Position numbers and translations under genes: made by a program. Shown one piece after another: positions 3,597 through 24,205 of a stretch of 24,205 bases of DNA. This stretch comes from a virus. Lineage: Duplodnaviria > Caudoviricetes. Position 1 is the first letter of the stretch. Every line of letters starts with the position of its first letter. Under the pieces are notes generated by a model. The model did no database searches. It worked only from the letters and a program-made list of their open reading frames with translations, and was not told the origin of the DNA. The stretch covers positions 1 to 24,205 of IMG/VR virus record IMGVR_UViG_3300020045_004256; one strand, 5' to 3'.

Positions 3597-4001
3597 ATGA
3601 GCAACAACGCACAGGCAGAAAAAGAAACCTTGGCCGCAGAGGCGAAAGCCCTTGGTGTTAAGGGGTATCACTTGATGGGCATTGACACCCTCAAGGACGC
3701 AATCGCCGCTGCAAAATCGGATTCCGAGAAAGCCGCCAAGGAAAAGGCTGAAGAGATAAAGAAGGCCGAGGAAAAGTTTGAGGCCGAGCGGGTGGCTGCG
3801 GAGAAGGCTGAAGCTGACCGCCTCGAATTAGAGAAGGCTGAAACTACTACCGCGACCCAAACCACCTGGCAATACCACAAGACCGAGCAACCCCGAGTAT
3901 TTCAGCCTGGCGATATTATCCCCGCTGGCTGGAGTAGCGATAACCGCAAGCTCTGGAATTTCTCTGACTATGGAGTATGGGAATTAAATGCCAACGCTTA
4001 A
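3597..4001 (+). CDS. Small phage protein: HeH/Rho-N-like N-terminus, A/E/K coiled coil, C-terminal WxYHKTE...GW module
   Basis: EKETLAAEAKALGVKGYHLMGIDTLKDAI resembles a helix-extension-helix motif. GAGG RBS upstream. Overlaps the next gene by 14 nt. Confidence 0.7.
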   Translation: MSNNAQAEKETLAAEAKALGVKGYHLMGIDTLKDAIAAAKSDSEKAAKEKAEEIKKAEEKFEAERVAAEKAEADRLELEKAETTTATQTTWQYHKTEQPRVFQPGDIIPAGWSSDNRKLWNFSDYGVWELNANA

Positions 4002-6111: not shown

Positions 6112-6678
6112 ATGGGCTTTTTTGAAAGTGTGATGAATTATGCCGACCCTATCAGCGCATCTATTTTGACAGACCAGGGCCAGGCTATTGGGGTTGATAT
6201 GCCTGACTCTCATGCCGCTATTGATCTTTACGGGCGGCCAGAACCTTACAAATCTGATCGGACGGGAACGGAGTTTGACGTTAACGATCCGGCCAAGGCC
6301 GAGGCGGCTAAACGTCTTGATGCACAGATGGCGCTCTGGAGAAGCAAGCAGAAGCCCCAGGTAAAGAAGAAAGACGACCCTCGGCATAAAGACTTCTGGC
6401 CGGTGATGAATAAGTACGAGGCCGACTGGAAGCAGGGCCAAGTTCCCGCAAATACCAAGCAGACGCCGGCCGCTGCCGACAATGCTCTTTCGGTAGGCAC
6501 CCGCAACCCTGACTTTCCACAGAACGGCGGGATTAATCCGAATGGAATGTATTCAGGCGGCAATTCCTTGTCCACTCCGGCTCCCCAGCAGCAGGCCGGC
6601 GCCTATGATTCTCCTGAAGTTCAAAGCCAAGTCCTCAACCGGTATTACGGCGGGGCTGATTACGGGATGTTTAAATAA
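6112..6678 (+). CDS. Hypothetical protein, Q/N/P/G-rich, possibly an internal virion protein
   Basis: 188 aa. Starts 1 nt after the gp10 stop, and its stop overlaps the next start (TAATG). No recognisable domain. Confidence 0.7.
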   Translation: MGFFESVMNYADPISASILTDQGQAIGVDMPDSHAAIDLYGRPEPYKSDRTGTEFDVNDPAKAEAAKRLDAQMALWRSKQKPQVKKKDDPRHKDFWPVMNKYEADWKQGQVPANTKQTPAAADNALSVGTRNPDFPQNGGINPNGMYSGGNSLSTPAPQQQAGAYDSPEVQSQVLNRYYGGADYGMFK

Positions 6679-7667
6679 TGGAAACCGTCTCTCTTTGTCC
6701 AGAGTGTTACGCAAGCATCCCGGCTGTGATCTACGAGCGCGACGGGGCGGCCTGGATGACGAAGGTTTGTCTTGAGCACGGCACATTTGATGCGATGGTG
6801 GAGCGTGATTATGGGTGGTGGCTTTACAGCCAGACACATGCGGGGAAGGGCATTTATGACGGGTACATCGTTGATGCGACCACCCGATGCAATCTTAATT
6901 GCCACCACTGTTTCCATTCAAAAGGGGGCGCCGATCGGTCTATTCCTGATATTGCCTTAGAGCTTCGGTCAAGGTCGCTCCCCGGCGACGCACCGGTTAT
7001 CCTTTTCGGTGGAGAGCCGACAATACATTCAGAATTTTTTCAACTTGCCAGAGAAATACGGGATGAGTTCGGTTTGTTGTCAATGGTCACCAATGGAACA
7101 ATGACCGCCGACCCTTCCTTTTTCGAGAAAGCGCTTCCGTTCTTTATGCTGAGAGGAAGAGATACCACCATCAATGTTTCAACCCATAAGGAAAGCAACG
7201 GGGCGGATATAGCCACACTTGAAAACGCCCGCGATGCAGGGGTGACAATCTACTCGGTTTTATACTTGGTGGACGATATCGGCCAAGTTGAACACGCCGT
7301 AAAATTGGCAGATCGCTACTCCGATGTTGTCCAGAATGTCAGAATACGGGCAGCCGGTAATATTTGGGCCGAGAGCGAAGACCCGGACAGGCTGTTCGTG
7401 TCAGATATCATTAAAGAGTTGGCCCGCTTAGGAAGGGTTGAATTAATTGCTGGTGCCAAACATGTAACCGGGTTTGCCAACATAAAGTTCAATGGGAATC
7501 TCCACCTGATCCCCGCCGCCTTTCCCGATGTTTTCCGTGTTGACCTTCAAGAAATTGATTGCGCCCCTTGGTATCGGGCAAAAGATGGAAGTGTTAACAA
7601 TATCTTAACGTCTCTTCTGATCAACGAGGGAATCGACAAGGGCTTCTACCAGGGGCGCCCGGTATGA
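6678..7667 (+). CDS. Radical SAM protein with N-terminal rubredoxin-like metal site (Tes/GDGT-MAS/MJ0619-like, compact)
   Basis: N-terminal SLCPEC...KVCLEHGTF (C7, C10, C31, H34), CNLNCHHC cluster motif, GGEPT and VTNG motifs. Confidence 0.88.
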   Translation: METVSLCPECYASIPAVIYERDGAAWMTKVCLEHGTFDAMVERDYGWWLYSQTHAGKGIYDGYIVDATTRCNLNCHHCFHSKGGADRSIPDIALELRSRSLPGDAPVILFGGEPTIHSEFFQLAREIRDEFGLLSMVTNGTMTADPSFFEKALPFFMLRGRDTTINVSTHKESNGADIATLENARDAGVTIYSVLYLVDDIGQVEHAVKLADRYSDVVQNVRIRAAGNIWAESEDPDRLFVSDIIKELARLGRVELIAGAKHVTGFANIKFNGNLHLIPAAFPDVFRVDLQEIDCAPWYRAKDGSVNNILTSLLINEGIDKGFYQGRPV

Positions 7668-8746
7668 ATATCCTCATGGTTCTCCATAAATATGGCGTCC
7701 GCCTCGACGACCCTTGCTGTTTTCCCCTTGGCTACATGACAATCTCTTCTGTGCTCAAGCAAAATGGCCACAATGTAACCATAAATAACCAGAACTTGCA
7801 CGACGCGGTGCCACTTGAAGGATATGACGCCGTGCTCTTCACCGGGTTTGAAGACTTCCTGCCGCTGATTAAGCGCGACGCTGCCATCTGTCGGGCAAAT
7901 GGGGTCAAGACCGTACTTGGCGGCGCCCTGGCCACGTTTAAGCCTGAAGCTATGGCGCAGGTCGTAGATACGGTGGTGGTTGGAGAAGGAGAGGATGTTG
8001 TCTGTAGAGCACTGAATGAGCACGGCATCATCCAAGGCACCAAGCCAGATATCAACGCCCTTCCCTGGCCTGACTATGAGGGGTTCGGGGTTGACGAATA
8101 CCATCAGCGCAACGGCCGCAAACATATCGGAGTCTTGACCTCCCGTGGCTGCCCGTTCTCCTGCCGCTTTTGCGCCCAGACCTGCAAAACCCAACAGCGC
8201 GACGTTGATCAGGTGATGGCCGAGGTGGAGAGCTACGGGGAGGTAGACATCATCTTTAACGACAACACCTTTAACCTGAGCAAATCCCGCTTTATTGACA
8301 TTGCCGGCCGGATGCGGCGGCCCTGGTCGGCGGCGATTCGGGTTGACAAGTTCGATGACGACATGGCCCAGGCCGCCAAGGATGGAGGCTGCCAATACTT
8401 TGTGGTTGGTATTGAGTCTTTTCGGCAAGACAAGCTAGACCGGATGAACAAGCGGATTAAGGTTGAGCAGATAACCACCTGCCTAGACCTCCTGCATAAA
8501 TATGGAATCAGATACCACGGCAACATCCTTACCGGACTCCCTGGCGAATCTACCGAGGATATTCTTGACGAGTTAAGGGAGATTCCAGGCGGCTACAATG
8601 TATTTCCTGTGCTGGTTCAGCCTTTCGTCGGCACCGAATACAAGACACGCAGTATTTCCCCGGAAGATGCCGCGTCGTTTAAGGCACTCTACGCAGATAT
8701 CGCCGCCAGCCGTGGCATGAGCATGTACCCAACGCAAAATGATTAG
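7664..8746 (+). CDS. Cobalamin(B12)-binding radical SAM protein
   Basis: PLGYMTISSVLKQNGHNV, VLGGALAT and VVVGEGED (B12-binding Rossmann part), followed by TSRGCPFSCRFC, FNDNTF, GIES and GLPGES (radical SAM barrel). ATGA overlap with the previous gene. Confidence 0.9.
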   Translation: MNILMVLHKYGVRLDDPCCFPLGYMTISSVLKQNGHNVTINNQNLHDAVPLEGYDAVLFTGFEDFLPLIKRDAAICRANGVKTVLGGALATFKPEAMAQVVDTVVVGEGEDVVCRALNEHGIIQGTKPDINALPWPDYEGFGVDEYHQRNGRKHIGVLTSRGCPFSCRFCAQTCKTQQRDVDQVMAEVESYGEVDIIFNDNTFNLSKSRFIDIAGRMRRPWSAAIRVDKFDDDMAQAAKDGGCQYFVVGIESFRQDKLDRMNKRIKVEQITTCLDLLHKYGIRYHGNILTGLPGESTEDILDELREIPGGYNVFPVLVQPFVGTEYKTRSISPEDAASFKALYADIAASRGMSMYPTQND

Positions 8747-9176
8747 AGAAGCCGCTTATTCCGACATTTATGACGTAGGGGTGATGGCCAAGAACTTCGA
8801 GAACCATACTGTCCATGTGAAGGTTGACCCTGGATATACCGCCCTGGTGTATTGGCGCCATATTCTCAAGGGAACCGGGGTTGTTTTTGTAATTGAGAGG
8901 GAAGGCCAAATAGTTGGCGGGCTTGGCGGAATCAAGGGGCCAGACCTCCACTACCCAAGAATTATCGCCGTCGAGACATTCTGGTTCGTCCTTCCAGAAC
9001 ACAGGGGCGAAGGGTTGAAGCTGATGGAGAAATTTGAGCAGTGGGCAGTTGACCAAAAATGCGACGCCGTGGCGATGGTTCACTTATCTGACAGCCAGCC
9101 AAAGGTTTTAGAAAAGATTTACGCACGGAAAGGCTACAGCCTGGTGGAAAAACATTATTTAAAGGTGCTGATATGA
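8739..9176 (+). CDS. GNAT family acetyltransferase (slot of P22 gp14)
   Basis: MIREA...D start, WFVLPEHRGEGLKL acetyl-CoA motif A, and IYARKGY. Confidence 0.88.
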   Translation: MIREAAYSDIYDVGVMAKNFENHTVHVKVDPGYTALVYWRHILKGTGVVFVIEREGQIVGGLGGIKGPDLHYPRIIAVETFWFVLPEHRGEGLKLMEKFEQWAVDQKCDAVAMVHLSDSQPKVLEKIYARKGYSLVEKHYLKVLI

Positions 9177-9862
9177 GTGTGGTTTCTGGAGTTATGGGCG
9201 CCAACGCCGCCGAAGACGCGGCAGGGATGCAAGCCGAATCAGCAGCGCAAGCCAACGAAACACAGTGGAAAATGTACGAGCAGTCTCGGAAAGATCAAAT
9301 GCCGTGGCTCGTCGCCGGTGAAGAAAACCTGGGCAACCTGAACGCAATGGTAGCGGACGGCCCGGGCTCCTTCAAGGACAGCGAGTATTACGACCAGGGG
9401 CTTGAGGAAGCCAACCGGGCCACCGACACCTATCTTGCCTCTCGCGGCCTGTACGGCTCAGGGAAGGCGGCAAAAGACCTCCAGAAAACCGCCGTGTCAA
9501 TTAATACCCAGAACCGGGGAAATTGGTTGAATGAGTGGATCGCCACCAAGCTCAATCCGACTCAATCGCTTGCCGGGGTCGGCCAGTCTGCGGCGGCGGG
9601 GATGGCTGGTAATGCCTTAAATACCGGGAATATTATTGGCAATAACTTGATGTCTGCCGGTAACGCCCGTGCCAACGGGATGATTGGAGCGGCCAATGCC
9701 AGAACGCAGGGGGCGCAGGGGGTAGCCAACGCGGTGGCGTCGTATTATGGGAACTCGGGTGCAGCGGCAGGAGGTGGAGCGGCTAGTGGGGCAAGCAACG
9801 ATTGGGTTGGCACAAGCGCAGGCGGAACGGCGGGAACCACAGCGGGAAGCGAAGGTTGGTAA
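9173..9862 (+). CDS. DNA transfer/ejection protein, P22 gp7-like
   Basis: GANAAEDAAGMQAESAAQANETQWKMYEQSRKDQMPW, RGLYGSG and G/A/N-rich AGNARANG motifs. Follows the GNAT with an ATGA overlap. Confidence 0.8.
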   Translation: MSVVSGVMGANAAEDAAGMQAESAAQANETQWKMYEQSRKDQMPWLVAGEENLGNLNAMVADGPGSFKDSEYYDQGLEEANRATDTYLASRGLYGSGKAAKDLQKTAVSINTQNRGNWLNEWIATKLNPTQSLAGVGQSAAAGMAGNALNTGNIIGNNLMSAGNARANGMIGAANARTQGAQGVANAVASYYGNSGAAAGGGAASGASNDWVGTSAGGTAGTTAGSEGW

Positions 9863-10906: not shown

Positions 10907-10953
10907 CGGGGTTATCCAAATTCACTGAACTTTAACGGGGTTATTGAAATTCA
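10907..10953 (+). repeat. 18-nt imperfect direct repeat upstream of the giant gene
   Basis: CGGGGTTATCCAAATTCA (10907-10924) versus CGGGGTTATTGAAATTCA (10936-10953), 16/18 identical. Confidence 0.75.
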
Positions 10954-13900
10954 TGCAAATCGCAGATATCCGCCAGAAGTACCCGGAGTACAGTGATCTA
11001 TCAGACGGAGAACTTGTTTCTGGCCTGCACAAGAAATTCTACTCAGATATACCCATTGTTGAGTTTTCTAAGAAACTTGGGCTCACAGCGCCCACCGACA
11101 CAATCCAGCCACCAACGGTAACCGGTGAACTAGCGAATGCCGCAAAGAATTATCTTTCAACCCCGTCAACCCCGTCAGCCTTCAAGGATGTTGCCGCGCT
11201 TCCCCAGGTAAAGGCAACCGTTTACCCAGCCCCGGCGCAATTCCCTGTGGAGATGTCGCCATCCCACCAGACATCGAGCGTCGCCATTCCTGCGCCAGTG
11301 AACACCAACGCCTTCAACCCAACTCGTATTGATTCTGGCAAGGTTGATGCTCTTGGGAAGATTGCGAGTGGTGTTTCAGGAGCGGTTGGCAACCTTGGCT
11401 TTGCGGCTACCACTGGTTTAGCAAAAGTATCTGGCGAGTTGGCCAATCTTTCTGTTGGTAATGAGTCGTCGCCACACGGATCAGAGGGCTATCTTAACCG
11501 GGAAACCTTTAAGGAAGCGGAAGACCAGCTTAAAAGACTTTCCCTTTATTGGGAGAAGGGAGCGCAAGACACCACCCTGCCGCAGCAGATTGTTGGCGAT
11601 CTATTCGGCGGGGCTATCCCGGGAATGGTTAGCTTCACGCTCATGCCAGCCCTAGCGGCACGGAAATTATCAGAGGGTGATTTCCTTGGCGCAGCAAAAG
11701 AGGCCGGGGAATATGCCGTAGCCAAGACCATGCTGCACCATATCAACCGGCTGACCCCGGCCCCACGCTTAATGCTGGCCGGAATGTTCGGCGCCGGCCA
11801 GGCCGCTATTGCGGGTGGCGATGCGCGAGACATGGCCAGGGGTGCGGCCACTATGGCTGGGTTTGGGGTCTTGGCTGGTAAGGGCGGCAAGTCTCTCAAG
11901 GATGCAGGCGCAGAATATTTTGCCAAGTTCACTGACTTCAAGGCCCGCCGCGCCGCTCGGAAGATGTGGGAGAATGCACCGGATAGCATGAAGGTTCCGG
12001 CCATTATCGCGCTTGATCAGATGATGGCGAACAACCCTAATATGTCAGAGGGAGAAATAATCAGGCGGTGGCCTCAGTTTATGGATGAGGCGATCGGAAA
12101 AAGAAATTCCGGCGAAAACCAAGGGAAACCAGTCTCTACCGATGGCGCTAATCCTTTAGGGGATGTGATCAACGGGAAGATATCACCCGAGATTCCCCCT
12201 GCTTCCCCTAAGCCTCCACCGACTTCAGGAGAAGGGCCAGGAGTAGGCATCAACGACCTTTCCCGCCCCACCCCCACGACCGGCCCGCAGATTGAGGCAA
12301 CCCGGCAGGCTCCCGCATTCCCAGGTGTCGCCCCGGCAATGATCCCGCCAGCGGCACCGGTTAACGCTCTGGCTTCACCGCAGGCAACCCCGGCCCTTCC
12401 TGCCTATCCCGGCACACCTCCAGCCTTTGAATTACCGAAGCAGGCCGCAGAGGAGCGCAACCTGGACACACAGGGCAATCGAATCGACCGGCGCCAGAAC
12501 CACCCGAGCAACCCGCACGGTATCGAGATGCTGGCCGAGCGCAATAAGCCGCTTGAAAGAGTTCTTGACCGGGCAATGGTGAATCATGCCGATTACGAGA
12601 GATTGAAGGCAACTGATCCCGAGTTGGCAGAGAGGTATAAACGCGCAACAACTGACGAGCTGCTTGGTAGTTATGGGGTTACTAGCTTCGCAGATATAAG
12701 GGAAGTGGCGGGAAGTTTTGATAAACAGAATATCCCGTATGTTATTGAGCGGGCGGACGGGGGCAATCTGGGCGGGGCCAACGATAAACATGGCGGCAAC
12801 CACGAAGGCGCCAATAGGGATATCCGTCAAGTATGGGGTGATGTTTATGTCCGCAGAGTGCGAGAGCACGGCGGCTTAGTGTCTCGCGATCAGGGCGATG
12901 AGATTTTAACGATCTGGCCTAACTACACCCTGGCCGAAGTTGAGACTATCCGCGCCGAGATTGAAAACGAAGTACGCGCCAAGCGGGACGAGTTGGGATA
13001 TTCAGACACCTTCCATCCCAAGAAAGGTCTTCCAACTGGCGCCCTGCATATCAATTACGGCCTGGCGGAAGGAGTGCCAGGGAAGTTCGCCGAACAAGAG
13101 AAGGTCGCAGAGTTTGGGCAGCACAACCAGAAAAAGAAAGAAATAGCTACCATTGCAGAGAAGAATGGTTATATTCTTAACCAGGAGACAAAGAAATATG
13201 AGCCAAGAAAGCTGGAACATACGCCAGGGGCTCCCGGCGAACGCGACCGACCAGGAATCGCTGATACACTCGGCGCAGTTCGCCCCGACGCAGGACTTGC
13301 GGCAGCAGGCACACGAAATCCTGGTGGACGCAGAGAAGAAGGGAATTTTCCCGCCGAGGGAAACAGTGGTCAAGTAGCCAAACATCTCGGGGAAACCCTA
13401 TCCGCCGACACGGAATCTGGCCAGCACATCCCGCTTCAGTACGGTCTAGCTGAAGCGCAAGACCTCGTTACATCCCACGACGACCAACTCCAAGTAAACC
13501 CCGAATATCCCGCAGAACTACAACCCCGGAACCGCGACCGCGCCGCCTATGCCCTCCAGGTTGCCAAGATTGCCAATGAGATTAAACCGTCCTGGCTTGT
13601 CAATAATTACAAGGTCAATGAAGGCGCCCCGGTTGTCAGCGGTCAGGGAGAAGTTGAGAGCGGCAATGGCCGGACAATCGGCATTCGTCAAGCATACGCC
13701 ACCGGAAAGGCTGCCGAGTACAAAAAATATCTGGCCAACAACGCCGAGAAGTTTGGGCTTACTGCTGATCAGGTGAACAGTATGACCGCCCCTGTCTTGG
13801 TGCGGATCAGAACAGGGAGCATGTCCGCCGAAGAGCGCATCGCCTTCGCCCAAGAGGCCAACGTCAGCGGAGTTACCAAAGTTTCCACTGTTGAGCAGGC

Positions 13901-16900
13901 CAAGATTGACGCGGCAAAACTCGAATCTCTTGACCAGTTTGTACCGAATGAGTCTGGTGAGGTAAAGGACGCGGCCAACCGGGGCTTTATCCGCTACTTT
14001 ATTGAAAGGGTTGTGCCGGCTGCCGAGCGCAATTCCATGATGGATAGCGACGGCAATCTTTCACAAGAAGGAGAGCGCCGGGTAAAGGCCGCTATCTTCG
14101 CCAAGGCTTACGATAATCAGAAAGTTCTTTCCCGCCTCCTAGAGTCCACCGATTCAAATGTGAAGAATATCACCGGGGCCATGCTTAACGCCGCCCCGGG
14201 TGTTGCCGCCTTGCGCCAAGGCATGAAGGCCGGCAACCTTTACGATCTGGATGCCACCGCCGACATCGGCACAGCAGTCGAGAAATTCGCCGAGATTAAA
14301 TCTAAGGGCGACAGTGTTAAAGCCTTCCTTCAGCAGACCAATATGTTTGGTGGCGGGATGCCCGAAAGCCAGAAAGCCATTCTTGGCTATCTTGACGGCG
14401 CCTCTCGCTCACGCAAGCAAGTTCAAGCCTTTATTCAGTCATACGTCGATGTGGTTAACGGCCTGGGTAACCCAAACCAGTTATCTCTATTGGGCGGCAG
14501 CAAGGAAGTGCCAACCCTGCCCGCAGTTCTTGACCGGGCCATAAGCCGGGCCAACGAGAAGAGCGACAAGGGGCAGACCCTTTTTAGTAACGTCAAAACC
14601 CCGCCTGCTATTGATTTGACGCCAGAGACACCAGTCGCCCCCGCAGCAATCACAACCCCGGACGCCTCTACTTCTACCCCGGCAGAAGCAAGCGCCACGC
14701 ATGGGGGCAAGAGAACCGCCACCATAACACAAGGAGATGTCGGGCAATGGACGGTATCATTCCTTGAAGATGGGCAGGAGGTGTCATCGTCTAATCCGCA
14801 AAGCGAGGCTGCTGCAATAGCGAAGAAAATTAATTGGGAGAAAGGGCGAAAGGCAGGGCCAGTCCCCATCCACAGCCAAGAGGCGGAAATAGATCGAGCC
14901 GCCACTGCCGGGTACGAGTTCGCCAAAAATAATGGGCCGGGAGTTCGATTGGCTCCGCCTGCGTGGGTAGAACAAGACGACTTCACCTCGCTTGCGTTTA
15001 AAATCGGCGCCAGAAGATATTTTGACGAGAACCCATCCGGGGTTACTTCCGAAATAAAGAAAGGCGAGATTGGCGGCAAGATGTCAGAGGGCGAAACAGT
15101 CCTGACCTCTTCCGGTCGAACCACCACCCCTTTCCCGAAAATTGACACCACGACCAACACCAAGACCATCTTTACCGTCAAGCGCGGAACGGCCTGGTTA
15201 ATGGATAATGCCATTGCCGAGGCCCAGGCCAGGGGGGATAGCTTCAACCTGCGCCAGTTCGAGTCGAATAAGGCCAAGCCAAGCCAAGCGGACAAGGATA
15301 GCGCCGAGTTGTACTTGTTTGGTGAGCAACCTGCCGTCAAGCCAAGCATTTTGAAGGACCTGACCCCGAAGGCTCCAGTCCCACGGCCGGCCGCTCTTAC
15401 CGAAAGAGACGCCACCACCGAAGAGCGGATCATCAGCGAGAAGGCACCGGCAGTCCTCGACCTGGCCAACAAGCCAACGGGATGGAAACAGCTTGTCGGC
15501 GAAAACCGTGATTCCGTCACACTGGTCACCATTGACGGGAAAAAGGCGATAGCGTTTACCAACCCCGACGCCAAGAGCGGGGCGGAAGCAATGCGAATGA
15601 TGGCTAAAGCCCACGCCTACGCCATTGACAACCCCTATTCGATTCCAGAATCGTCTCCTGGTGAGCTTGTTGTTAAGCCCCTGGTCGGCCAATCGGCACC
15701 AGCCAAATCAGGGAAGCATGTCTCTAGTCTAGGGATGTCCTACGAGGCCGCAGTTGAAAAGAACCTGATCCACATGGGAACGCCCCGGGCGCAATGGTCG
15801 GCGGTCAAGGTATCAGGAGCCGAGGATGACGGCGCCGGACACCTTATGCCTATTTTTGATTTTCCTAAAGGGTACACCGACGCCCCGACGCTATTCCCGA
15901 TTTCTGGCTCTGACTCTAATTGTGAGCTTTGTGGAAATGGGATTAAGATTATTTATCACCTCCAGAACGACACAAGGAAATGGAATCTGAAGGTTGGTAG
16001 CGAATGTGTTACGCACTTCACTGAAGGAGTAGCCGGTGAGCAACTTACTAAACAGGCTGTTTGGGAAATCAACAGGGCTCTCGCCCGTAAAGTGATAGCG
16101 GCAAGGAAAAAATTATGGGAAGTCTTCGCCACTCCAAGCACAGGTAGTTATGGCCGGCAGGGCAGAGCGATCAATAACCAGATAGCCGCTGGTACGCACG
16201 GTAGGATCAAAGAGCTGACAAAGAATATCTTGGCTGACAAGCCCAAGTTAAGCGGCATGGAGGCCACAGCAGACGGAGCGATAACTAGATGGGTGGCGGT
16301 AAACAAGGATGAGCTCTCGGCGCTTATTGATAAGGCTGCTGACCTTATTGAGAAAAAAACCGGAATCCGCCCGACCTTCGAGGAGGCCAGTGTTGTTCAA
16401 TCTGAAGTAACGACAAATACCACTCCCGCCCCTCTTCCCGAAGGCGTCCATAAAGATGTAGTTGAACGCCTGGAGATGGAACTTGCCACCGCTCAAGATC
16501 GAGCCGCCAGAGAGCAGGCCGCGTCGAAACGGTTGCATGAGTCAGACAATATCCCCGGCTCTTTCGTTACCGGGCGCAGCAATCAGCACAAGGGCTTGCA
16601 GAAGAAACGCGGGGCCATGAATGAACGGCTCATGCGCCAGCACGACAAACTCCAAGCCGCCGAAAAGAGCTTGGCCGAAGCCGAGCGGCGCCTGGCTGGT
16701 TACCGGTCGGGAGAATTCCACGAAAACGGCCAACCCCGGGCCGCCTCGCCGTCCCGCCTGGCTGCCGCTAAAACGGTTGGAACTTATGCCGACTACATCA
16801 GGGCCAGGGTAAGCAAGGGCGATACGGTTACCTTCCTGCCTAATCCTCGCGCGGGAGGTGTGGAGGTTAAGCGCCTCAACGTCAAGACCGTGACGCTATC

Positions 16901-19900
16901 CACCGGGACGAATTGGACATACGACAATATCGCTCCCATGAAAGACGGCCGGGAGATGACCCGGGAGGAGTTGAAGGCGGATATTAAGGCATGGCACCAG
17001 ACCGATCAGGCTGTGCCGGTTGAGAGCTCACCATCCAAAGAAGTTACAGCCAAAAAATCTCTTACCGAAATGGTTGACGAAGCTCTTGCAGGAAGAGCTG
17101 TTGGGAATAAGGCCGACGCCCTTCGGAAACAAGCCGACAAGCTCACCAGCGAAGCTATGTCTATGCTTGATCGGATTCCGCCAGGGCAGCCAGTAGGATC
17201 GCCAAGAGACAGGAATCTTCGGGATAAGTCAGCAGAGAAAATGCGCCAAGCCGGAGAGCTGAATAAACAGGCGGAAGAAATAGAACTAAAGCCAGCCAGA
17301 CCTCAGCCGGTTGAGAAGGCGACACCCCCCTCTGCACAGGTTGAGTGGACACCAGAGCAGCAAGTCAAGATTTCCGCCGACACCCTCAACGAATTGCGGC
17401 CCGACGATGTTTACCGGGTTCTTGAATCAACCCCGGCAGAACACCGGGACGCGATGAAATGGGCGATCATTAAGGAGCATTCCAGCAATCAGCGGATTCA
17501 AGACGAAGTGCGCTCGGCGATGGACGAACTGGCCGCTGAGAAGTTGGGCGAAAAGATTCCACCCAGCCCTGCCAAGTCCGAGAAGCCCAAGGTTATCTCC
17601 TGGGAGAAGCCAGACCAAAAGCAGCTCGAGGAAGAATGGAAAACTGAACAGCTTGATTCACTTTTCTTCACCGGCTACCCGAAACCAGAACAGGCCAGAG
17701 CCTACAAGCAACAGTGGTTTGCCGCCCTGGACGACTTCAGCGCACCCGAAAAGGTTGATCCTCAAGACTTCAAAGCCGACCTTTATATCGCCGAGTCCGA
17801 CGAGAAGCTGGCCGAAAATATCAAGCACATGAACAAGAATGTTCCTGGCGTCAGGGCCATGCTTGATAGTGGAAAGGCTCCAATGCCGGTCGTTATCCGC
17901 AAGGAAGGCAAGCTGAAGATTCTGGCCGGACGCACCCGGATGAGCCTGGCGGCGATGTCTGGCCAGGAAGTTGAGGCGCTGGTAATCGACGACAAAAAGA
18001 TGCGCGAAGCCTTCTACCCTATGCGCCGGGCCGAGTTCCTCGATCACGGATGGGGAATCTTTGGATTTAGCCCGAAACCCAGCTATCCCAAGATCATTGA
18101 CTACATTGAGGGCCGAACAGAAGAGCTTCCAGTTCTCGGGGTTGACCCGAATGCTACCCCTGAGAAAGTGAAAAAAGAGGTAGAGCGCCTGATGAAGCAC
18201 CTGGGCGCCACCAGTAGGGAAAACGCAAAAGCAATGTCTCCAGGGCCGGCCAGCACCGAAGCGCCCGCCGAATCATCCTTGCCCGCCACAAGCCAGCAAG
18301 ATGCCATTGCAACGCCCAGCAAGATTGATCAGGCCACCAGGGAAAATCCCGATATCAAAACAACCCTGGCTTTCCACAATGAAACGATTGAGCGCCTGGC
18401 CAACGGTGAAGCCACCCTGGCCGAATACAAAGCCGGGTTCACTCGCCTCCTGAACAGCCAGGCAGAATTGACCGCCGAGTTCTCCAAGATGAGCAAGCAG
18501 GCCATTATGGATGAGATTGGCGGCCATACTGCCGACCGGATGAGGGGAGACAAGAAGGATGTGGCTGTGCGAAGTGCCGTCGATGCGCTGGTAAATGATT
18601 ATTTCATCAGCAAAGAAGGCGGGATGGGCAGTATTAGTTATGAGATTGGCGGGGATTATCGCACCTCTCGCAACGCCGCTATTCAGAAGAAGATTGACGA
18701 CTTTACCGAAGAAGACTTGAAAGCATACGCCGCCAGGGTGAAGGCGAACCGGGAAAAGTACGCCGCCCGGCAGGAGCAGGCCGAAGAGGCCGTAAAAGAC
18801 CCGAAGACCCTGAGCGACTTCAAGGATTATTTCCGCGCCAAGATGAGCCCGACCGTTTCCTTCAAGGAGGTTTACCGAGGGCTCACACCTGAACAGCAGG
18901 CCGCTTTTGATAGCCACTCGGCAGGCGAGAGCCGCCCGGCCAGGATCGCCGCCCTGGAGAAACGCCGCACCTCTGTTCGTGTTGCAGACCAGACAACCGG
19001 CGCCGTTGTTGTTCCGGGGATGCACAAGAAACATAATGTCCCGATTTGGACTGTCCAGCTTGGTGAAAAGGTTGACCGGGCCAGCTACGAGGCTCTGCTT
19101 GGCACCGCTAAACAGATGGGCGGCACCTACGTCAACAGAATGAAAGCTCGGATGTATAACACCGATGACGGCTTCCAGTTCCGCGACCAGGCCAAGGCCG
19201 ACGCCTTTGTTAAACTGGTGGCCGGCGATAAGACCGAGGCCGAGCAGGTAGTCAAGGAGCGCCGCGATTCCTTCAAGGACGACCGCAGCCAAAGCGCCGT
19301 CGAGCGCCTTAACGAGATGGCCGACAAGCTCGACGAGCGGGCCGGCGAATCTCTTGGACGGGATCGGAAAGAGAATACCTCCAGGCGGGCAGACCAGTCG
19401 GCCCGGGCCGAAGCCACAGCCAATGCCGAAAAGGCTATGGCCACCACCATGCGGAATATTGCCAACGCGATTGAATCGGGCTCGGCAGAACTTCTTGATC
19501 AGGTGCGCCAGAAGGTTCAGGTTGAAACCCTTCAGAAGTTCCTGAACAATGCCCGCAACGGCGAGTACCCGAATTACAGCGATTGGGAAAAACACCGCTA
19601 CGACCCGCCAACAACCAAGACCGCTGGCTTTGTTGAGTACCCGCAATATACCGCTTTCCGGTCGGATTGGGCCAGACTCGGGCGCCAGTTGCGCGAGATT
19701 GACGGAACCAAGAAACTCGGCGCCGGAATCCTGAAGGTTGCCGATGATGTGACCGCAGCCTACGAGAAGTTTGCCAAGGACAATATTAAGTCAACGCACG
19801 GTTTTAGCGAGAAGTCTGTTGCCCGCTTCAGGACAACCAGCGGCGGCCAGGCAACTTTCAAATCAAAGACCCTGGCGGAAGATTCTATCGACCGCTCAGG

Positions 19901-22900
19901 ATATCGCGGGAAAGCTATCGCCCTCAAGATCAAGAATGGCGAATACCAGATTATAATGAGCCCCGAGTCCGCAAGAGAGGCTGGCATCTGGGAAGGCGAC
20001 AGCGACAAGCGCATTACGATGGCCCCGGATGTAGGCGCCGAGATTGTGGCCAAGGTTAAGGCGATGAGCCGTAGCCAGCGCGTCGATATGCCTTGGATGT
20101 TTGAGGTGGTGCGCGATGACCGCGCCCGGCTGGCGGCGATGGGCTTTGAAACCCCGGCTGAGCTTCGAGCCGCCCTGCGTGAGTTTATTAATCTCAGAGA
20201 AGCCCCGAAACAGGCCGACAAGATTAAGCAGATGGAACGCGAGATGATTGGCCGGGCCAAGGACGGGCTTGACTTCTTCCCCACCCCGAAAGCCACCGCC
20301 CAGGAGATGATCGACGCGGCCGGGATCACCGAGGGTATGAAGGTGCTGGAGCCGTCTGCCGGGATGGGACATATTGCCGAGCAAGTGCGAGAGTCAGGAG
20401 CCGAGCCCGATGTGGTCGAGATGTCAAACGACCGGCGCGAGTTGCTGGAGGCCAAGGGCTTCAATGTGGTTGGCCGAGACTTCATGGATATGAAATCGGC
20501 TCCCGAACCAATATGGAAGTATGAGGAATACACCCCGTTTTCACGACAACTAGCCAAAGATTACACCCGGTCAGAACTGGAGTCGCAGCGCGATAAGTAC
20601 GACGCAAATCGAAGTGGTTTGGCTGCCAGCCACGAAAGAGCAATATCCGCCACCTCTTCAATGACAAGCAATAGCGCCCGCCGTGCTGGCTCTAGAAATT
20701 CGATGACCGGGAATTATGAAGATTTTCAGAACAGAGTTAACGCTCTCGAAATCTATGATAACTACCCAGAGAAGACCAAGGAAGGGGGAAATGTCCAGGC
20801 TGGTGGTTATGACCGAATCATAATGAACCCGCCGTTCTCTGACCGCCGTGACGCGCAGCACGTTCAACATGCCTTCACCCTCCTTAAACCGGGTGGCCGG
20901 GTGGTGGCTATCATGGGAGAGGGCGTGTTCTTCGGCCAGGACAAGAAGGCCGTCGCTTTCAGAGAATGGCTTGATGAGGTTGGCGGAACCGCCGAAAAGC
21001 TGGAGTCTGGGACATTCCTTGACCCATCCCTACCGGTTAACACCGGAGTTTCTGCCCGTATGGTTGTTATTGATAAACCGGGCGGGCAGATGGTTACCAG
21101 TGAACCGGCCGCCCCTTACGCGGCGGAATATGATAGTGTTGCCGAAGGAGATATTGAAAGCGAAAGCGTGATTACTCGGGCGGTTGATACCGAGTCGCCA
21201 GAGTTCAAACAGTTCTTCGGCCCCTCTGTTGTCACCATCGACGGCGAGGCCGGTAGCGCCCCGCTGGTGGTCTATAAGGGGATGCTCAAGCATGACTGGA
21301 AGACCGGCAGGGAAATCACCTCTATCGACTCACCAAATGGCCCTTGGGCTGGTTTCTTCACCGACTCCGCCGATGTGGCCGACAAGTTCCAAAAAGCCTT
21401 TGCCACAATGGGCGAAGCCAGGACAATCCAGGTTTATTTGAATATCCGCAACCCCTATGTCATTGACGCCAAGGGTGGCCGAGCCAAAGACTTCATGTTT
21501 GATGATGCCGTGTTTGGGAAAGACCCAACTAACCCGGGCGCCGCTGCCGCCTTCCGGCAAGGCCATGATGGTGTGATCATTAAGAACACAGCAGACGAAG
21601 GAGCGGTTTATATCCCGGCCCGGCCCACTCAGATCAAATCAGCCACCTCCAACACCGGGGAGTTTTCCCTCACTAACCCGAATATCACCAGAGAGCCCAC
21701 GGCCGAGTATCAAACCACCGTCATCGAGCCAGCCAAAGCCTTCTATTCCAAGCTGAAAGATGTCTCGGTTGGGAAGTTTATAGGCATGAAGGCCCAGAGC
21801 GTCGAGCCCTACCTGCTCAAGCAAGGCGTGAAGAAAGCAGAGATTGAGGCCACCGGGCTGCGTGAATGGCTGGCCGCCAAGAAGCCAACCGACAAGGTGA
21901 CCCAGGCCGAGCTTGAGAACTTCGTCAAGGCGAATACCGTTGAGCTTGAGGATGTGGTGTTGGGGAAGAACAAGACAACCGGCGTTCACGATACAGACCA
22001 TGGGTGGCGCAACGCCATAGACATTGCCTTTGATGCAGGCAGAGAGGCCGAGGCTGACAGGCTCACGGCGGGGTATGACTCGTGGAGAGCATCAGGGGGC
22101 GCGACAGACACCCACTTCTCCCAATACACCGAACCCGGCGCGGTTGAGGGCAGCTACCGGGAGATGTTTGTTACGGCTCCAGGTGTCAACGTACCTACCG
22201 AAAACGGGCGCCTCTGGCGTGACGGTCACTCTCAGTACGGAGAAGTAGAGAACCCTGTTGTCCGTATCCGGTTCAACGCGGTCGAGGCCGACGGCAAGCG
22301 CGTTTTAAGAATTGAAGAGATGCAGGGACCGAACCCCGACAACCAAGCCAAGATGCCCGCCTACCTCAAGGAGAACATCTACCAGCTTGGCGTGAAGCGC
22401 ATCCTGGCCTATGCGAAGGCGAACGGCTTTGACGGGGTGGCGCTGGCGACCAAGCCAGGACGGACTGCGGGCGAGACTCAGGCGGATCGGTACTCGCTGG
22501 AGAAGCAGGTTGACAAAATATCAGTGGATAAGACTGCCAGCGGAACGTACCGGTTGCAGGTCTGGGGGCCAGAAAACAACTCCATATATTCCAACAAGAA
22601 CGGTAAGGCAATTACCGCCGACGGACTTGTGCCGATTGTTGGCAAGGAGCTGGCGCAGAAAATATCCGAGCAAGAACCTCTGAGTGGGAAGACCTATTCT
22701 GGGGTTGACCTCAAGGTAGGCGGCGAAGGCCTGAAGAAACTCTACGACACCGACCTCCCCCGCATGTTCGAGGCCTACGGCAAGGGAAAGATGGGGGCGG
22801 TGGAAACACCAGAGACTAAGGATATCCATATGCGATATTCTCCAGACCGTTACGAATGGAACGGGCCAGTTCCTACTCTGGAAGATGTCAAAACAATGAT

Positions 22901-24205
22901 GGAGATATCCGAAAAATCCGGCCCTCCTATTTTTGACAATCCTTTCACCGGCCAGCGCCAGGACTTCGCAATAAATACTGTTGGAACTCACCGGTCACTC
23001 AAGGAAGTCTATCGGGATGTTTCCAGCGGCGAATATGATATGAAGGAAGCTCTTATAGCGAAAGGGGCAACCACCGTATTCGGGGCCAATGTTATCCCTA
23101 TCGCCTCCGGTTCGACCATACCCTACATCCCCATCACCCAGAACACCCCGACCAGCTTCGCTACTTTCGAGCCCCGCCAGATGAGCTTCGGCTACGCCAA
23201 GCGACCCGAAACCCTCACGCCAGCGCAGAAGGACAACGAGGCCAAAGCTATCGCAGGGGCAACCGCACAAATCAAGGGATTGCCTGGGACTGTACTCGCA
23301 AACAAAATAGCCAAGGACTTCAAAGATAACAGTAAAACCAATATCTTAGGGCAACAAGTTAATGGGATAGATGACATGGCTGTAATCGGTCAAATATTCC
23401 GCAACCCTCACTTTGAAACCAACCGCTATGTGTTTGTGAAGGATGGAAAGATTGTCAATATCACCGGCGTAACCTCCCGCCTTCCTGGTTCGGCTGCGGC
23501 CTTTATTGGTAGAAATACCGACGCGGCTAAGGGCGCCACCCAGATTCAAGGGATGATTGATCAATCCGGGGCTAATGGCTTCTACCTGCTCCATAATCAC
23601 CCGAGCGGCAACCCACGGCCAAGCGGACTTGATATTGAATTCACCAAGTTCATCGAACACAAGTTTGCCGACCAGTTCCAGGGCCATGTTGTGATCAACC
23701 ACGACAGCTACGCAACCATCAAGGGCGGGAGTATTGAAGTCAAGCCCCTCTCAATGGCTACCCAAGAGCCCGGCCGGTACGGTGCGGCCAGCGGAATAAC
23801 CACCCCCCACCCTCTTATCGGAACGCTGATAAATAGTTCACGCACCCTGGCAGCTTCGGCGGCGAAGTTGCAGGCCGACGAGAGTACCTTTCAAATAATC
23901 GGCACCAGCGGTTCGTCTGGCACGGTGGCGGGGATTATGGATATCCCTGTAAGTGCGGTGAACAAGGCGAAGGGGTTGCGACTGGTGGCCATGCTTCGGC
24001 AGTTTGCCCGGGCAACAGGATCAGCGCAGGTGTTCGCCGTGAACATTCCAGACAAGGCCGGTATCGACTTTGAGCGGGCGATAAAGAACGGAGTGCTAGT
24101 CGATGCGCACTATTCGTCCTACGGTTCTTTGTCCGACGCAGGAATTCACCCGGAAGGAGATGTTGACTTCGGACGCAGTGGAATCAAGGGGTTAAAGGTC
24201 AGTGA
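10953..24205 (+). CDS. Giant polyvalent (multi-effector) ejection/internal virion protein, at least 4417 aa, 3'-truncated by the window
   Basis: Manual translation of frame +3 from ATG 10953 (MQIADIRQKYPEYSDLSDGELVSGLHKKFYSDIP) found no stop up to the window end (...GLKVS). Many enzyme motifs occur in this frame. It occupies the P22 gp16 position. Confidence 0.93.
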   Translation, partial: MQIADIRQKYPEYSDLSDGELVSGLHKKFYSDIPIVEFSKKLGLTAPTDTIQPPTVTGELANAAKNYLSTPSTPSAFKDVAALPQVKATVYPAPAQFPVEMSPSHQTSSVAIPAPVNTNAFNPTRIDSGKVDALGKIASGVSGAVGNLGFAATTGLAKVSGELANLSVGNESSPHGSEGYLNRETFKEAEDQLKRLSLYWEKGAQDTTLPQQIVGDLFGGAIPGMVSFTLMPALAARKLSEGDFLGAAKEAGEYAVAKTMLHHINRLTPAPRLMLAGMFGAGQAAIAGGDARDMARGAATMAGFGVLAGKGGKSLKDAGAEYFAKFTDFKARRAARKMWENAPDSMKVPAIIALDQMMANNPNMSEGEIIRRWPQFMDEAIGKRNSGENQGKPVSTDGANPLGDVINGKISPEIPPASPKPPPTSGEGPGVGINDLSRPTPTTGPQIEATRQAPAFPGVAPAMIPPAAPVNALASPQATPALPAYPGTPPAFELPKQAAEERNLDTQGNRIDRRQNHPSNPHGIEMLAERNKPLERVLDRAMVNHADYERLKATDPELAERYKRATTDELLGSYGVTSFADIREVAGSFDKQNIPYVIERADGGNLGGANDKHGGNHEGANRDIRQVWGDVYVRRVREHGGLVSRDQGDEILTIWPNYTLAEVETIRAEIENEVRAKRDELGYSDTFHPKKGLPTGALHINYGLAEGVPGKFAEQEKVAEFGQHNQKKKEIATIAEKNGYILNQETKKYEPRKLEHTPGAPGERDRPGIADTLGAVRPDAGLAAAGTRNPGGRREEGNFPAEGNSGQVAKHLGETLSADTESGQHIPLQYGLAEAQDLVTSHDDQLQVNPEYPAELQPRNRDRAAYALQVAKIANEIKPSWLVNNYKVNEGAPVVSGQGEVESGNGRTIGIRQAYATGKAAEYKKYLANNAEKFGLTADQVNSMTAPVLVRIRTGSMSAEERIAFAQEANVSGVTKVSTVEQAKIDAAKLESLDQFVPNESGEVKDAANRGFIRYFIERVVPAAERNSMMDSDGNLSQEGERRVKAAIFAKAYDNQKVLSRLLESTDSNVKNITGAMLNAAPGVAALRQGMKAGNLYDLDATADIGTAVEKFAEIKSKGDSVKAFLQQTNMFGGGMPESQKAILGYLDGASRSRKQVQAFIQSYVDVVNGLGNPNQLSLLGGSKEVPTLPAVLDRAISRANEKSDKGQTLFSNVKTPPAIDLTPETPVAPAAITTPDASTSTPAEASATHGGKRTATITQGDVGQWTVSFLEDGQEVSSSNPQSEAAAIAKKINWEKGRKAGPVPIHSQEAEIDRAATAGYEFAKNNGPGVRLAPPAWVEQDDFTSLAFKIGARRYFDENPSGVTSEIKKGEIGGKMSEGETVLTSSGRTTTPFPKIDTTTNTKTIFTVKRGTAWLMDNAIAEAQARGDSFNLRQFESNKAKPSQADKDSAELYLFGEQPAVKPSILKDLTPKAPVPRPAALTERDATTEERIISEKAPAVLDLANKPTGWKQLVGENRDSVTLVTIDGKKAIAFTNPDAKSGAEAMRMMAKAHAYAIDNPYSIPESSPGELVVKPLVGQSAPAKSGKHVSSLGMSYEAAVEKNLIHMGTPRAQWSAVKVSGAEDDGAGHLMPIFDFPKGYTDAPTLFPISGSDSNCELCGNGIKIIYHLQNDTRKWNLKVGSECVTHFTEGVAGEQLTKQAVWEINRALARKVIAARKKLWEVFATPSTGSYGRQGRAINNQIAAGTHGRIKELTKNILADKPKLSGMEATADGAITRWVAVNKDELSALIDKAADLIEKKTGIRPTFEEASVVQSEVTTNTTPAPLPEGVHKDVVERLEMELATAQDRAAREQAASKRLHESDNIPGSFVTGRSNQHKGLQKKRGAMNERLMRQHDKLQAAEKSLAEAERRLAGYRSGEFHENGQPRAASPSRLAAAKTVGTYADYIRARVSKGDTVTFLPNPRAGGVEVKRLNVKTVTLSTGTNWTYDNIAPMKDGREMTREELKADIKAWHQTDQAVPVESSPSKEVTAKKSLTEMVDEALAGRAVGNKADALRKQADKLTSEAMSMLDRIPPGQPVGSPRDRNLRDKSAEKMRQAGELNKQAEEIELKPARPQPVEKATPPSAQVEWTPEQQVKISADTLNELRPDDVYRVLESTPAEHRDAMKWAIIKEHSSNQRIQDEVRSAMDELAAEKLGEKIPPSPAKSEKPKVISWEKPDQKQLEEEWKTEQLDSLFFTGYPKPEQARAYKQQWFAALDDFSAPEKVDPQDFKADLYIAESDEKLAENIKHMNKNVPGVRAMLDSGKAPMPVVIRKEGKLKILAGRTRMSLAAMSGQEVEALVIDDKKMREAFYPMRRAEFLDHGWGIFGFSPKPSYPKIIDYIEGRTEELPVLGVDPNATPEKVKKEVERLMKHLGATSRENAKAMSPGPASTEAPAESSLPATSQQDAIATPSKIDQATRENPDIKTTLAFHNETIERLANGEATLAEYKAGFTRLLNSQAELTAEFSKMSKQAIMDEIGGHTADRMRGDKKDVAVRSAVDALVNDYFISKEGGMGSISYEIGGDYRTSRNAAIQKKIDDFTEEDLKAYAARVKANREKYAARQEQAEEAVKDPKTLSDFKDYFRAKMSPTVSFKEVYRGLTPEQQAAFDSHSAGESRPARIAALEKRRTSVRVADQTTGAVVVPGMHKKHNVPIWTVQLGEKVDRASYEALLGTAKQMGGTYVNRMKARMYNTDDGFQFRDQAKADAFVKLVAGDKTEAEQVVKERRDSFKDDRSQSAVERLNEMADKLDERAGESLGRDRKENTSRRADQSARAEATANAEKAMATTMRNIANAIESGSAELLDQVRQKVQVETLQKFLNNARNGEYPNYSDWEKHRYDPPTTKTAGFVEYPQYTAFRSDWARLGRQLREIDGTKKLGAGILKVADDVTAAYEKFAKDNIKSTHGFSEKSVARFRTTSGGQATFKSKTLAEDSIDRSGYRGKAIALKIKNGEYQIIMSPESAREAGIWEGDSDKRITMAPDVGAEIVAKVKAMSRSQRVDMPWMFEVVRDDRARLAAMGFETPAELRAALREFINLREAPKQADKIKQMEREMIGRAKDGLDFFPTPKATAQEMIDAAGITEGMKVLEPSAGMGHIAEQVRESGAEPDVVEMSNDRRELLEAKGFNVVGRDFMDMKSAPEPIWKYEEYTPFSRQLAKDYTRSELESQRDKYDANRSGLAASHERAISATSSMTSNSARRAGSRNSMTGNYEDFQNRVNALEIYDNYPEKTKEGGNVQAGGYDRIIMNPPFSDRRDAQHVQHAFTLLKPGGRVVAIMGEGVFFGQDKKAVAFREWLDEVGGTAEKLESGTFLDPSLPVNTGVSARMVVIDKPGGQMVTSEPAAPYAAEYDSVAEGDIESESVITRAVDTESPEFKQFFGPSVVTIDGEAGSAPLVVYKGMLKHDWKTGREITSIDSPNGPWAGFFTDSADVADKFQKAFATMGEARTIQVYLNIRNPYVIDAKGGRAKDFMFDDAVFGKDPTNPGAAAAFRQGHDGVIIKNTADEGAVYIPARPTQIKSATSNTGEFSLTNPNITREPTAEYQTTVIEPAKAFYSKLKDVSVGKFIGMKAQSVEPYLLKQGVKKAEIEATGLREWLAAKKPTDKVTQAELENFVKANTVELEDVVLGKNKTTGVHDTDHGWRNAIDIAFDAGREAEADRLTAGYDSWRASGGATDTHFSQYTEPGAVEGSYREMFVTAPGVNVPTENGRLWRDGHSQYGEVENPVVRIRFNAVEADGKRVLRIEEMQGPNPDNQAKMPAYLKENIYQLGVKRILAYAKANGFDGVALATKPGRTAGETQADRYSLEKQVDKISVDKTASGTYRLQVWGPENNSIYSNKNGKAITADGLVPIVGKELAQKISEQEPLSGKTYSGVDLKVGGEGLKKLYDTDLPRMFEAYGKGKMGAVETPETKDIHMRYSPDRYEWNGPVPTLEDVKTMMEISEKSGPPIFDNPFTGQRQDFAINTVGTHRSLKEVYRDVSSGEYDMKEALIAKGATTVFGANVIPIASGSTIPYIPITQNTPTSFATFEPRQMSFGYAKRPETLTPAQKDNEAKAIAGATAQIKGLPGTVLANKIAKDFKDNSKTNILGQQVNGIDDMAVIGQIFRNPHFETNRYVFVKDGKIVNITGVTSRLPGSAAAFIGRNTDAAKGATQIQGMIDQSGANGFYLLHNHPSGNPRPSGLDIEFTKFIEHKFADQFQGHVVINHDSYATIKGGSIEVKPLSMATQEPGRYGAASGITTPHPLIGTLINSSRTLAASAAKLQADESTFQIIGTSGSSGTVAGIMDIPVSAVNKAKGLRLVAMLRQFARATGSAQVFAVNIPDKAGIDFERAIKNGVLVDAHYSSYGSLSDAGIHPEGDVDFGRSGIKGLKVS
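12642..13139 (+). other. Divergent GGDEF-like (nucleotide cyclase palm) domain within the giant ORF
   Basis: RATTDELLG...PYVIERADGGNLGGANDKHGGNHEGANRDIRQV...LVSRDQGDEILTIWP...LHINYGLA...AEFGQHNQKK is colinear with the GGDEF consensus TDxLTG...DLDxFKxINDxxGHxxGD...VARxGGDEFxILLP...SIGIA...ADxALYxAK. Confidence 0.72.
13198..13377 (+). CDS. Nested out-of-frame small ORF (59 aa) inside the giant gene, candidate partner or inhibitor of the GGDEF-like domain
   Basis: AGGAG at 13183-13187, ATG at 13198, TAG at 13375-13377. Product MSQESWNIRQGLPANATDQESLIHSAQFAPTQDLRQQAHEILVDAEKKGIFPPRETVVK. The host frame here is a G/R/P-rich linker. Confidence 0.55.
   Translation: MSQESWNIRQGLPANATDQESLIHSAQFAPTQDLRQQAHEILVDAEKKGIFPPRETVVK
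13395..14460 (+). other. DdrB-like ParB domain plus trailing helical region
   Basis: YGLAEAQDLVTSH...NPEYPAELQPRNRDR...GAPVV...VESGNGRT...PVLVR is the signature of the phage P1 DdrB-like ParB family. Boundaries are approximate. Confidence 0.85.
15921..16019 (+). other. Small Zn-binding module
   Basis: CELCGNGIKIIYHLQND...LKVGSECVTHF, with CxxC plus distal His/Cys ligands. Confidence 0.6.
17601..17990 (+). other. Second ParB/sulfiredoxin-fold domain
   Basis: AMLDSGKAPMPVVIRKEGKLKILAGRTRMSLAAMSGQEVEALVID fits the P-h-h-h...h-h-x-G-x-x-R-h-x-x-A...G...V-x-h-h-h-D ParB core. Confidence 0.65.
20271..21080 (+). other. N6-adenine DNA methyltransferase domain (class I SAM-dependent) with internal insertion
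   Basis: DFFPTP (motif X), VLEPSAGMG (motif I, 20343-20369), YDRIIMNPPF (motif IV, 20808-20837) and LLKPGGRVVAIM. Confidence 0.9.
21186..21686 (+). other. ADP-ribosyltransferase-like domain (ART-PolyVal type), variant active site
   Basis: SPEFKQFFGPSVV...PLVVYKG...GFFTD...VYLNIRNP...GHDGVII...PTQIKSATSNTGEFS..NPNI. Confidence 0.8.
21738..22790 (+). other. Recurrent polyvalent-protein domain of uncertain activity (possibly GNAT-like fold)
   Basis: FYSKL...GVKKAEIEATGLREWL...FSQYTEPG..SYRE...GKRVLRIEEMQG...KRILAYAKANGFDGVAL...GGEGLKKLYD. Confidence 0.55.
23343..23720 (+). other. RadC-like JAB/MPN metallo-domain
   Basis: Glu at 23415 (FET), HNHPSGNPRPSGLD at 23592-23633 (HxH-x7-S-x2-D), and GHVVIN. 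Confidence 0.88.

Follow-up and report, generated by a model that had tools for sequence, protein, structure and literature searches.

A conserved small gene hidden out of frame behind the GGDEF-like domain of a phage polyvalent protein, possibly encoding an inhibitor of that domain

Polyvalent proteins, as passages of their description present them (PMC5512222), are multi-domain, virion-linked proteins that carry DdrB-ParB, methyltransferase, ART and RadC modules. GGDEF domains are noted there, and nucleotide signalling in conflict is proposed. Those passages describe neither nested genes nor partners of the domains, the word "overlapping" occurring 0 times, and listings of the open-licence literature brought up no account of partner genes nested in such proteins. 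Small partners of larger genes are documented elsewhere. In MuF pairs of temperate phages (PMC5576092, in part), a phage head-associated effector domain is immediately followed by a small ORF that is taken to be an immunity gene; such ORFs follow 89% of the MuF toxin genes, the toxin being C-terminal and the small ORF a separate downstream gene. RpnS and RpnL (bioRxiv 10.1101/2023.05.02.539157, in part) form a gene within a gene, with an internal promoter and start. RpnS is in frame, being itself the C-terminal tail of the host anti-phage nuclease RpnL, and blocks the enzyme of this long product. In phage lambda, according to sections of PMC5295617, Rz1 is a small +1 gene wholly embedded in a mutationally silent part of Rz. 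The two products are partners, but they are cooperating membrane lysis proteins rather than an enzyme and its regulator, and the pair is known without any cassette exchange in a polyprotein.

The locus described here lies in a window of 24,205 nucleotides (the whole stretch of DNA that was analysed), a 24-kb virus record with a P22-like virion module of scaffold, coat, head-tail adaptor, head closure and DNA ejection genes. Its last gene has at least 4420 codons and runs off the contig end; the product carries ddrB-ParB (residues 825-956), DNA methyltransferase, ART-PolyVal and RadC/JAB domains. As in polyvalent proteins, several unrelated conflict domains are thus united in one polypeptide in the context of virion genes. 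The features of this region are:

9173..9862, + strand: DNA ejection protein gene (phrog_598), two genes 5' of the giant gene
10944..24203, + strand: giant polyvalent protein gene, closing the P22-like virion module
12546..13208, + strand: GGDEF-like domain, main-frame residues ~535-755 (profile, structure-model and alignment evidence)
12756-12758, + strand: first metal Asp of the GGDEF-like domain (family alignment)
12891-12905, + strand: QGDEI, replacing the GGDEF signature (family alignment)
13416..13811, + strand: ddrB-like ParB domain, the giant protein's following module (Pfam match)

With the ejection gene in this position, the giant gene belongs to the ejection-protein block; judged from this neighbourhood only, the giant protein would be packaged in the virion and enter the cell along with the DNA. 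For the giant gene the ORF finder gives a start at TTG 10944; an alternative ATG lies at 10953, and a strong Shine-Dalgarno sequence precedes neither. Between the head closure and ejection genes (6112-9176) lie a GNAT acetyltransferase gene and two genes for radical SAM proteins, of which one has an HMPTM zinc ribbon and the other a B12-binding domain; modification of virion proteins is possible.

The domain upstream of the ParB module had been called GGDEF-like in an earlier note made from the sequence alone. This assignment is borne out by a comparison of the domain profile with diguanylate cyclases of the PDB (E 1e-13). In a comparison with a single-sequence structure model, itself of low confidence, GGDEF structures come out on top (best E 4e-3), so that a GGDEF fold is indicated by the profile and by this tentative model. 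A Pfam GGDEF match is obtained for 24 of 34 family members (E<=0.1); the window's own copy gives none. The domain carries N- and C-terminal helices of its own, with a helix-plus-hairpin extension at the C-terminus. Among 1.84 billion representatives, 62 homologues were detected at E<=0.001, most of them in proteins of >1000 aa. The family alignment has 43 rows, namely 42 of the 62 and the window; the 20 omitted are fragments, partial, near-duplicate or weak matches. All 43 rows have the first Asp, the guanine Asn and the DE of the signature; a His is present in 39/43 and an Arg or Lys in 41/43, the catalytic roles being those we presume from PleD. The three invariant elements and the fold, with the R of the signature, are shared with diguanylate cyclases (GGDEF, PF00990). 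Unlike the latter, the family lacks a sensor domain and mostly has [QGK]GDE as its signature; Gly often takes the place of the Lys that follows the first Asp, and 16/43 rows have Asn for the second guanine-binding Asp. The window belongs to these 16 and, with QGDEI and Gly for Lys, departs from both the canonical GG(D/E)EF signature and the full catalytic residue set. The domain nevertheless looks like a live enzyme of a non-canonical family. Because the metal- and base-binding residues are intact, it would be expected to synthesize a guanine-containing dinucleotide. No match to the domain was found by a word-index search among longer proteins or by tblastn of the window domain against annotated phage and plasmid collections; a scan with P0027 was negative too. 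Samples of 401 genomes around G001 and around G002, which largely coincide, yielded the centre genome only. One candidate, L034, was dropped from the family as an ordinary diguanylate cyclase.

A second reading frame opens at the end of this domain. Its elements in the window are:

13147..13175, + strand: weak sigma70-like promoter, CTACCA-17-TATATT, predicted by consensus match (8 of 12)
13183..13187, + strand: Shine-Dalgarno AGGAG, 10 nt before ATG 13198; main-frame reading Q-E
13198..13377, + strand: nested +1-frame gene, 59 aa (ORF list, +1 coding score, AlphaFold)
13222..13233, + strand: R-x-G-hydrophobic motif of the peptide (R9-Q-G-L), from the end of helix 1 into a loop

These agree with the earlier description of the AGGAG and its distance to the ATG, of the 59-aa product and its quoted sequence, and of a stop just before the DdrB-ParB domain: the nested stop falls at main-frame residue 812, and the Pfam match starts at 825. 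As ParB homology in the window begins at residues 812-826, the nested gene occupies the linker as far as the following module. AlphaFold models the peptide as three helices (3-10, 18-28 and 32-48; mean pLDDT 83).

The pattern in the window is weak on its own and not significant (P about 0.09-0.19). When the 4420-codon gene is shuffled synonymously, 19% of the shuffles contain an ATG ORF of at least 59 aa behind an AGGAG (P ~0.19), and the three features coincide in 9% of local recodings. The +1 coding score at the nested ORF (0.11) is the highest in the giant gene and is reached by 0/184 other stop-free windows (mean -0.41, sd 0.13); it is unremarkable in the related loci L001 and L004. A second AGGAG-plus-ATG ORF in the +1 frame of the window (15826-15990, 54 aa) lies within a Cys-containing main-frame segment (CELCG at residue 1660) and is probably due to chance.

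The same could be asked of the gene behind the GGDEF-like domain. A Tyr-Glu pair in a hairpin and K/E-rich codons might mimic ATG and AGGAG; indeed, AlphaFold places a hairpin over these residues. Related loci bear directly on this. First scans yielded six (L001-L006), five of which extend past the domain while L005 stops inside it. Patterns drawn from the domain of another subfamily led to two more distant loci, L038 and L039. Of 15 loci picked up by DNA pattern scans, one repeated L001, two were distant GGDEFs (L023, L028) and 12, lacking a domain match, were dropped. A similar ORF behind homologous domains was what the earlier note had proposed to look for, and a Shine-Dalgarno-like site, an ATG and an uninterrupted +1 ORF stand at the equivalent place in 7/7 related loci with DNA behind the domain. 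The ORFs have 44-90 codons in the five first loci, 39 in L038 and 43 in L039. Given the main-frame proteins and codon usage, the joint probability under synonymous recoding of the seven loci is 6e-8.

The nested start leaves a footprint in the proteins as well. A dipeptide compatible with ATG (Y, D, N or H, then E/V/G/A/D) occupies the site in 39/42 homologous proteins, four of which come from the fetched loci, against a background of 0.38. Tyr is the commonest first residue (23/39), but D, N or H replaces it in 16/39. A clear footprint is absent in P0001, P0006, P0034 and P0059. When 38 rows outside the peptide profile were scored for compatibility with it, 16 exceeded the 95th percentile and 8 the 99th. 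Together with the conservation of the +1 protein, but not of the main frame, this makes the chance explanation, already largely refuted by the joint null, next to negligible.

What is conserved is indeed the +1 product. The peptides of the window, L001, L003, L004 and L006 resemble one another (z 2-19, with 8/10 pairs >5), while the main-frame linkers, aligned on their own, reach z <=3.8 over 15 pairs. The L002 peptide is an outlier in pairwise comparison (z -1 to 1.5 against the others, not significant), and L038 and L039 match the peptide profile with E 0.03 and 0.42 only. In an alignment built on the +1 peptides, core identity is 32% in the +1 frame and 18% in the main frame, and residue-preserving codon changes number 61 (+1) against 18 (main frame). 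In this +1-based alignment the main-frame wobble position turns from the most variable one in the domain (0.68) to the least variable over the nested core (0.47). Ser2 is shared by 7/8 peptides, encoded by AGC in four loci and by TCN in three. A motif R-x-G/D-[LIW], which matches 2% of stop-free 13-mers, occurs in 8/8 peptides. It was defined post hoc on five of them, and the L002, L038 and L039 peptides were then found to contain it. Its Arg is residue 9 in six peptides and residue 14 in two, and is specified by four codons (CGC, CGG, AGA, AGG). No stand-alone homologue of the peptide was found among 68 candidates of 24-158 aa, and matches in Pfam and PDB are weak and inconsistent, with no homologue of known function among them; the best Atlas score, 0.85, is a lead only. 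Conserved RNA structure was not detected at the start sites (z -1.5 to 1.5).

The pattern is non-random, being conserved in relatives and having the top +1 coding score of the gene. It appears that the nested ORF, wholly inside the giant gene, in a second frame, with start signals of its own and under selection, is almost certainly a real, conserved hidden gene. The term "overprinted", by which the small gene had been introduced, probably has the order backwards. Since it is the +1 frame that is under selection, the main-frame linker being unconstrained, the linker rather than the small gene looks like the secondary reading.

The ORF starts exactly at the domain end and an internal Shine-Dalgarno sequence can stimulate +1 shifts, as in prfB. 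A programmed +1 frameshift, yielding a shorter protein that ends in GGDEF-plus-peptide, might therefore be considered. This is very improbable: the ATG is kept in 8/8 loci, window included, at a Shine-Dalgarno spacing of roughly 6-12 nt, Ser2 follows it in most of them, promoters lie upstream, and the main frames have no slippery or stop codon in common.

The predicted promoters are hidden in the last codons of the domain. As had been remarked of the TATATT at 13170-13175, the window lacks a convincing -35: the best one, at a 17-nt spacing, is CTACCA (3/6), and 25/231 windows of the giant gene match the consensus as well as this 8/12 site. Matches are likewise weak in L001 (8), L003 (6) and L038 (6). 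L004, in contrast, has TTGACA-17-TATAAT, the sole 12/12 site of its 6.6 kb. Sites of 10/12 are found in L002 (TTGAAA-17-TATACT), L039 (TTGACG-17-TATATT) and L006 (TTGCCG-17-TATAAT), the last one shifted ~30 nt further upstream. The synonymous null for strong promoters is only ~0.05 per locus; 12/42 homologous proteins could encode at least 11/12 in the promoter stretch, against 1.4% of other windows. A sigma70-type promoter of its own is thus predicted for the small gene in 4/7 relatives (L002, L004, L006 and L039), and would presumably be active there.

The small gene is tied to the domain. Eight viral relatives of P0005 share its backbone, with DNA on both sides, but are devoid of the domain; several are near-identical, leaving ~five independent. 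None of the eight (0/8) has a nested ORF with Shine-Dalgarno and ATG at the site, nor does any match the peptide profile. Adjacency and co-inheritance, as between a toxin and its immunity gene, hold in 7/7 loci with the domain and in 0/8 without it. Backbone homology restarts at P0005 residue ~734, which corresponds to the end of the L001 match (L001:3798), the nested stop of L001 lying at 3790. The same peptide family follows the same domain across differing backbones and downstream modules. One of the loci, L006, is a prophage, since head, portal and closure genes surround it in a bacterial contig of 4.3 Mb. Domain and small gene are gained and lost together as a cassette, and to this extent the earlier proposal of a cassette stands. 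The insertion site (P0005 residues ~290-733, L010:569-1014) is hypervariable: P0005 holds an ART-PolyVal-like segment, recognized by eye, along with the GGDEF cassette, L010 has a different insert, and L008 and L011 have almost nothing.

The footprint is also present, mid-protein, in stand-alone GGDEF-like proteins of 313-393 aa (P0052, P0053, P0056 and P0070-P0073), where Y, H or N alternate before E or V among close relatives. Column-wise +1 compatibility in these stand-alone proteins is 7/27, against 4/39 and 3/20. They end in a short GM(D/E)(I/L)-like tail, which we take to resemble the tails of conjugative transfer substrates; they are possibly plasmid-delivered versions of the cassette. 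A non-overlapping, stand-alone ancestor pair was not seen in the DNA examined.

Could the small gene merely hitch-hike with the module? An independent early or lysogenic gene, for superinfection exclusion or host take-over, might settle in an unconstrained linker; its own promoter and Shine-Dalgarno sequence and the basic, amphipathic character of the peptides would be in keeping with this. Promoter-bearing nested ORFs with Shine-Dalgarno sequences do occur away from GGDEF domains. One, in L038 (4904-5251), is a second nested +1 ORF of 115 aa in the same giant gene, protein-like, behind TTGACG-16-TATACT (-10 at 4878) and a strong Shine-Dalgarno. Another, in L033 (2951 onward), follows TTGACA-17-TAGATT and runs off the locus. 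L038 also has a third ORF with Shine-Dalgarno and ATG (2600-2755). However, the small gene is missing where the domain is missing, one peptide family stays behind one domain across backbones and modules, and the footprint extends to the stand-alone proteins. Moreover, in L001-L004 the nested gene is the only nested ATG ORF of the long frame with a strong Shine-Dalgarno. In 28 long ORFs (32,880 aa) ten such ORFs were counted; six are the nested gene and one lies by another GGDEF. An independent gene is accordingly unlikely.

In more distant GGDEF clades, nested peptides unrelated to the present family are found in L023 and L033, as expected of cognate immunity proteins, while none is evident in L028. 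That of L023 (1748-1960) is a 70-aa +1 ORF, or 47 aa from a later ATG, which overlaps the end of the domain and has no close relative that could be found. That of L033 (1931-2155) is a 74-aa ORF behind TTGACA-17-TACCTT.

A small gene that lies behind a delivered enzyme, is exchanged with it, separately transcribed and clade-specific follows the pattern of toxin and immunity genes (PMC5576092, in part), and for this reason a cognate inhibitor is favoured. From position and co-occurrence, by analogy with such pairs, we lean towards the view that the peptide binds and inhibits the GGDEF-like domain and so represents the antitoxin half of an enzyme-inhibitor cassette. In this scheme the giant protein, judging from its gene context, would be made late, packed in the head and injected with the DNA, and in the new host its GGDEF-like domain would produce a dinucleotide, cyclic or linear, that contains guanine. 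The peptide would be translated from the ribosome-binding site observed upstream, and its gene, in many relatives, transcribed from the predicted host-type promoter that the last codons of the domain contain. In the producing cell and in lysogens the peptide would keep the enzyme silent, without entering the virion itself, and in the new cell it would end the enzyme pulse once the phage DNA is transcribed. The earlier idea that the newly infected cell receives only the effector could thus hold for the first minutes but not later, because near-consensus sigma70 promoters in several relatives would allow a lysogen or a newly infected cell to make the peptide without late phage transcription.

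Synthesis of c-di-GMP is not usually lethal, and the need for an inhibitor is for that reason an assumption. GGDEF domains require two protomers to join two GTPs, which leaves room for a partner of the opposite sign: a dimerizing cofactor, an activator or a folding chaperone of the domain, in which case the enzyme would be active solely where the small gene is expressed, such as in the lysogen. Co-occurrence and conservation would be equally expected. There is a likeness between the peptide motif and a conserved E-L-G-L segment of the domain itself (G in 40/43), which could serve to complete a dimer or to block it; mimicry of the enzyme on this basis is possibly at work, but this is an idea only. 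An enzyme injected to act before any gene is expressed would gain little from a partner made later, however, the domain has terminal helices of its own, and other GGDEF clades are followed by unrelated peptides. We regard a positive partner as rather unlikely. The peptide might instead neutralize or sense the product, as a nucleotide sponge or receptor. Phage nucleotide sponges are small proteins, and the conserved Arg and the basic N-terminus of most members would suit nucleotide binding. Yet the motif contains a single invariant residue, lengths vary from 39 to 90 aa and the peptides differ between GGDEF clades, so that a sponge or receptor seems quite improbable.

The pair has the architecture of Rz1 within Rz. 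If the peptide is indeed an inhibitor, it would act in the manner of RpnS towards RpnL or of the MuF immunity genes, yet the pair is a member of none of these. As far as the cited sources go, the antitoxins of Rpn are encoded in frame and the immunity genes of MuF stand apart from the toxin gene, and the present pair therefore belongs to neither class. RpnS shares its sequence with the long product, whereas the window peptide is read in the +1 frame, is unrelated to the linker sequence and stands on the phage side; acting alike, it would block the enzyme of its long product. In MuF pairs the effector is terminal, whereas the window has an internal effector, a main frame that continues across the small gene, and a promoter embedded in coding sequence. 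Such an arrangement likely arose when an enzyme gene and its downstream immunity gene were inserted mid-polyprotein: because of this location the small gene must be read through, and the main frame would have been opened across it as a linker.

An inhibitory role, if true, would fill a gap in the polyvalent-protein model, by explaining how a phage can build and package a signalling enzyme that is active yet leaves the producing cell undisturbed. The 221-aa domain and the 59-aa peptide are a ready pair to probe which nucleotide injected phage enzymes make, and the peptides may represent a new class of small GGDEF inhibitors. A broader conjecture, which we hold to be conceivable though somewhat doubtful, is that a polyvalent protein consists of exchangeable enzyme-plus-inhibitor cassettes strung together, with each antitoxin being a hidden unit of promoter, Shine-Dalgarno and gene in a domain's last codons and "linker". 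Were this true, it would provide for timed post-injection activity and immunity to sibling phages, in phages and conjugative elements alike, and in the GGDEF peptides a phage-delivered dinucleotide cyclase would have its first natural protein inhibitors, which may act through E-L-G-L mimicry. The "low-complexity linkers" of polyvalent proteins can be unannotated genes, recognizable from protein sequence alone.
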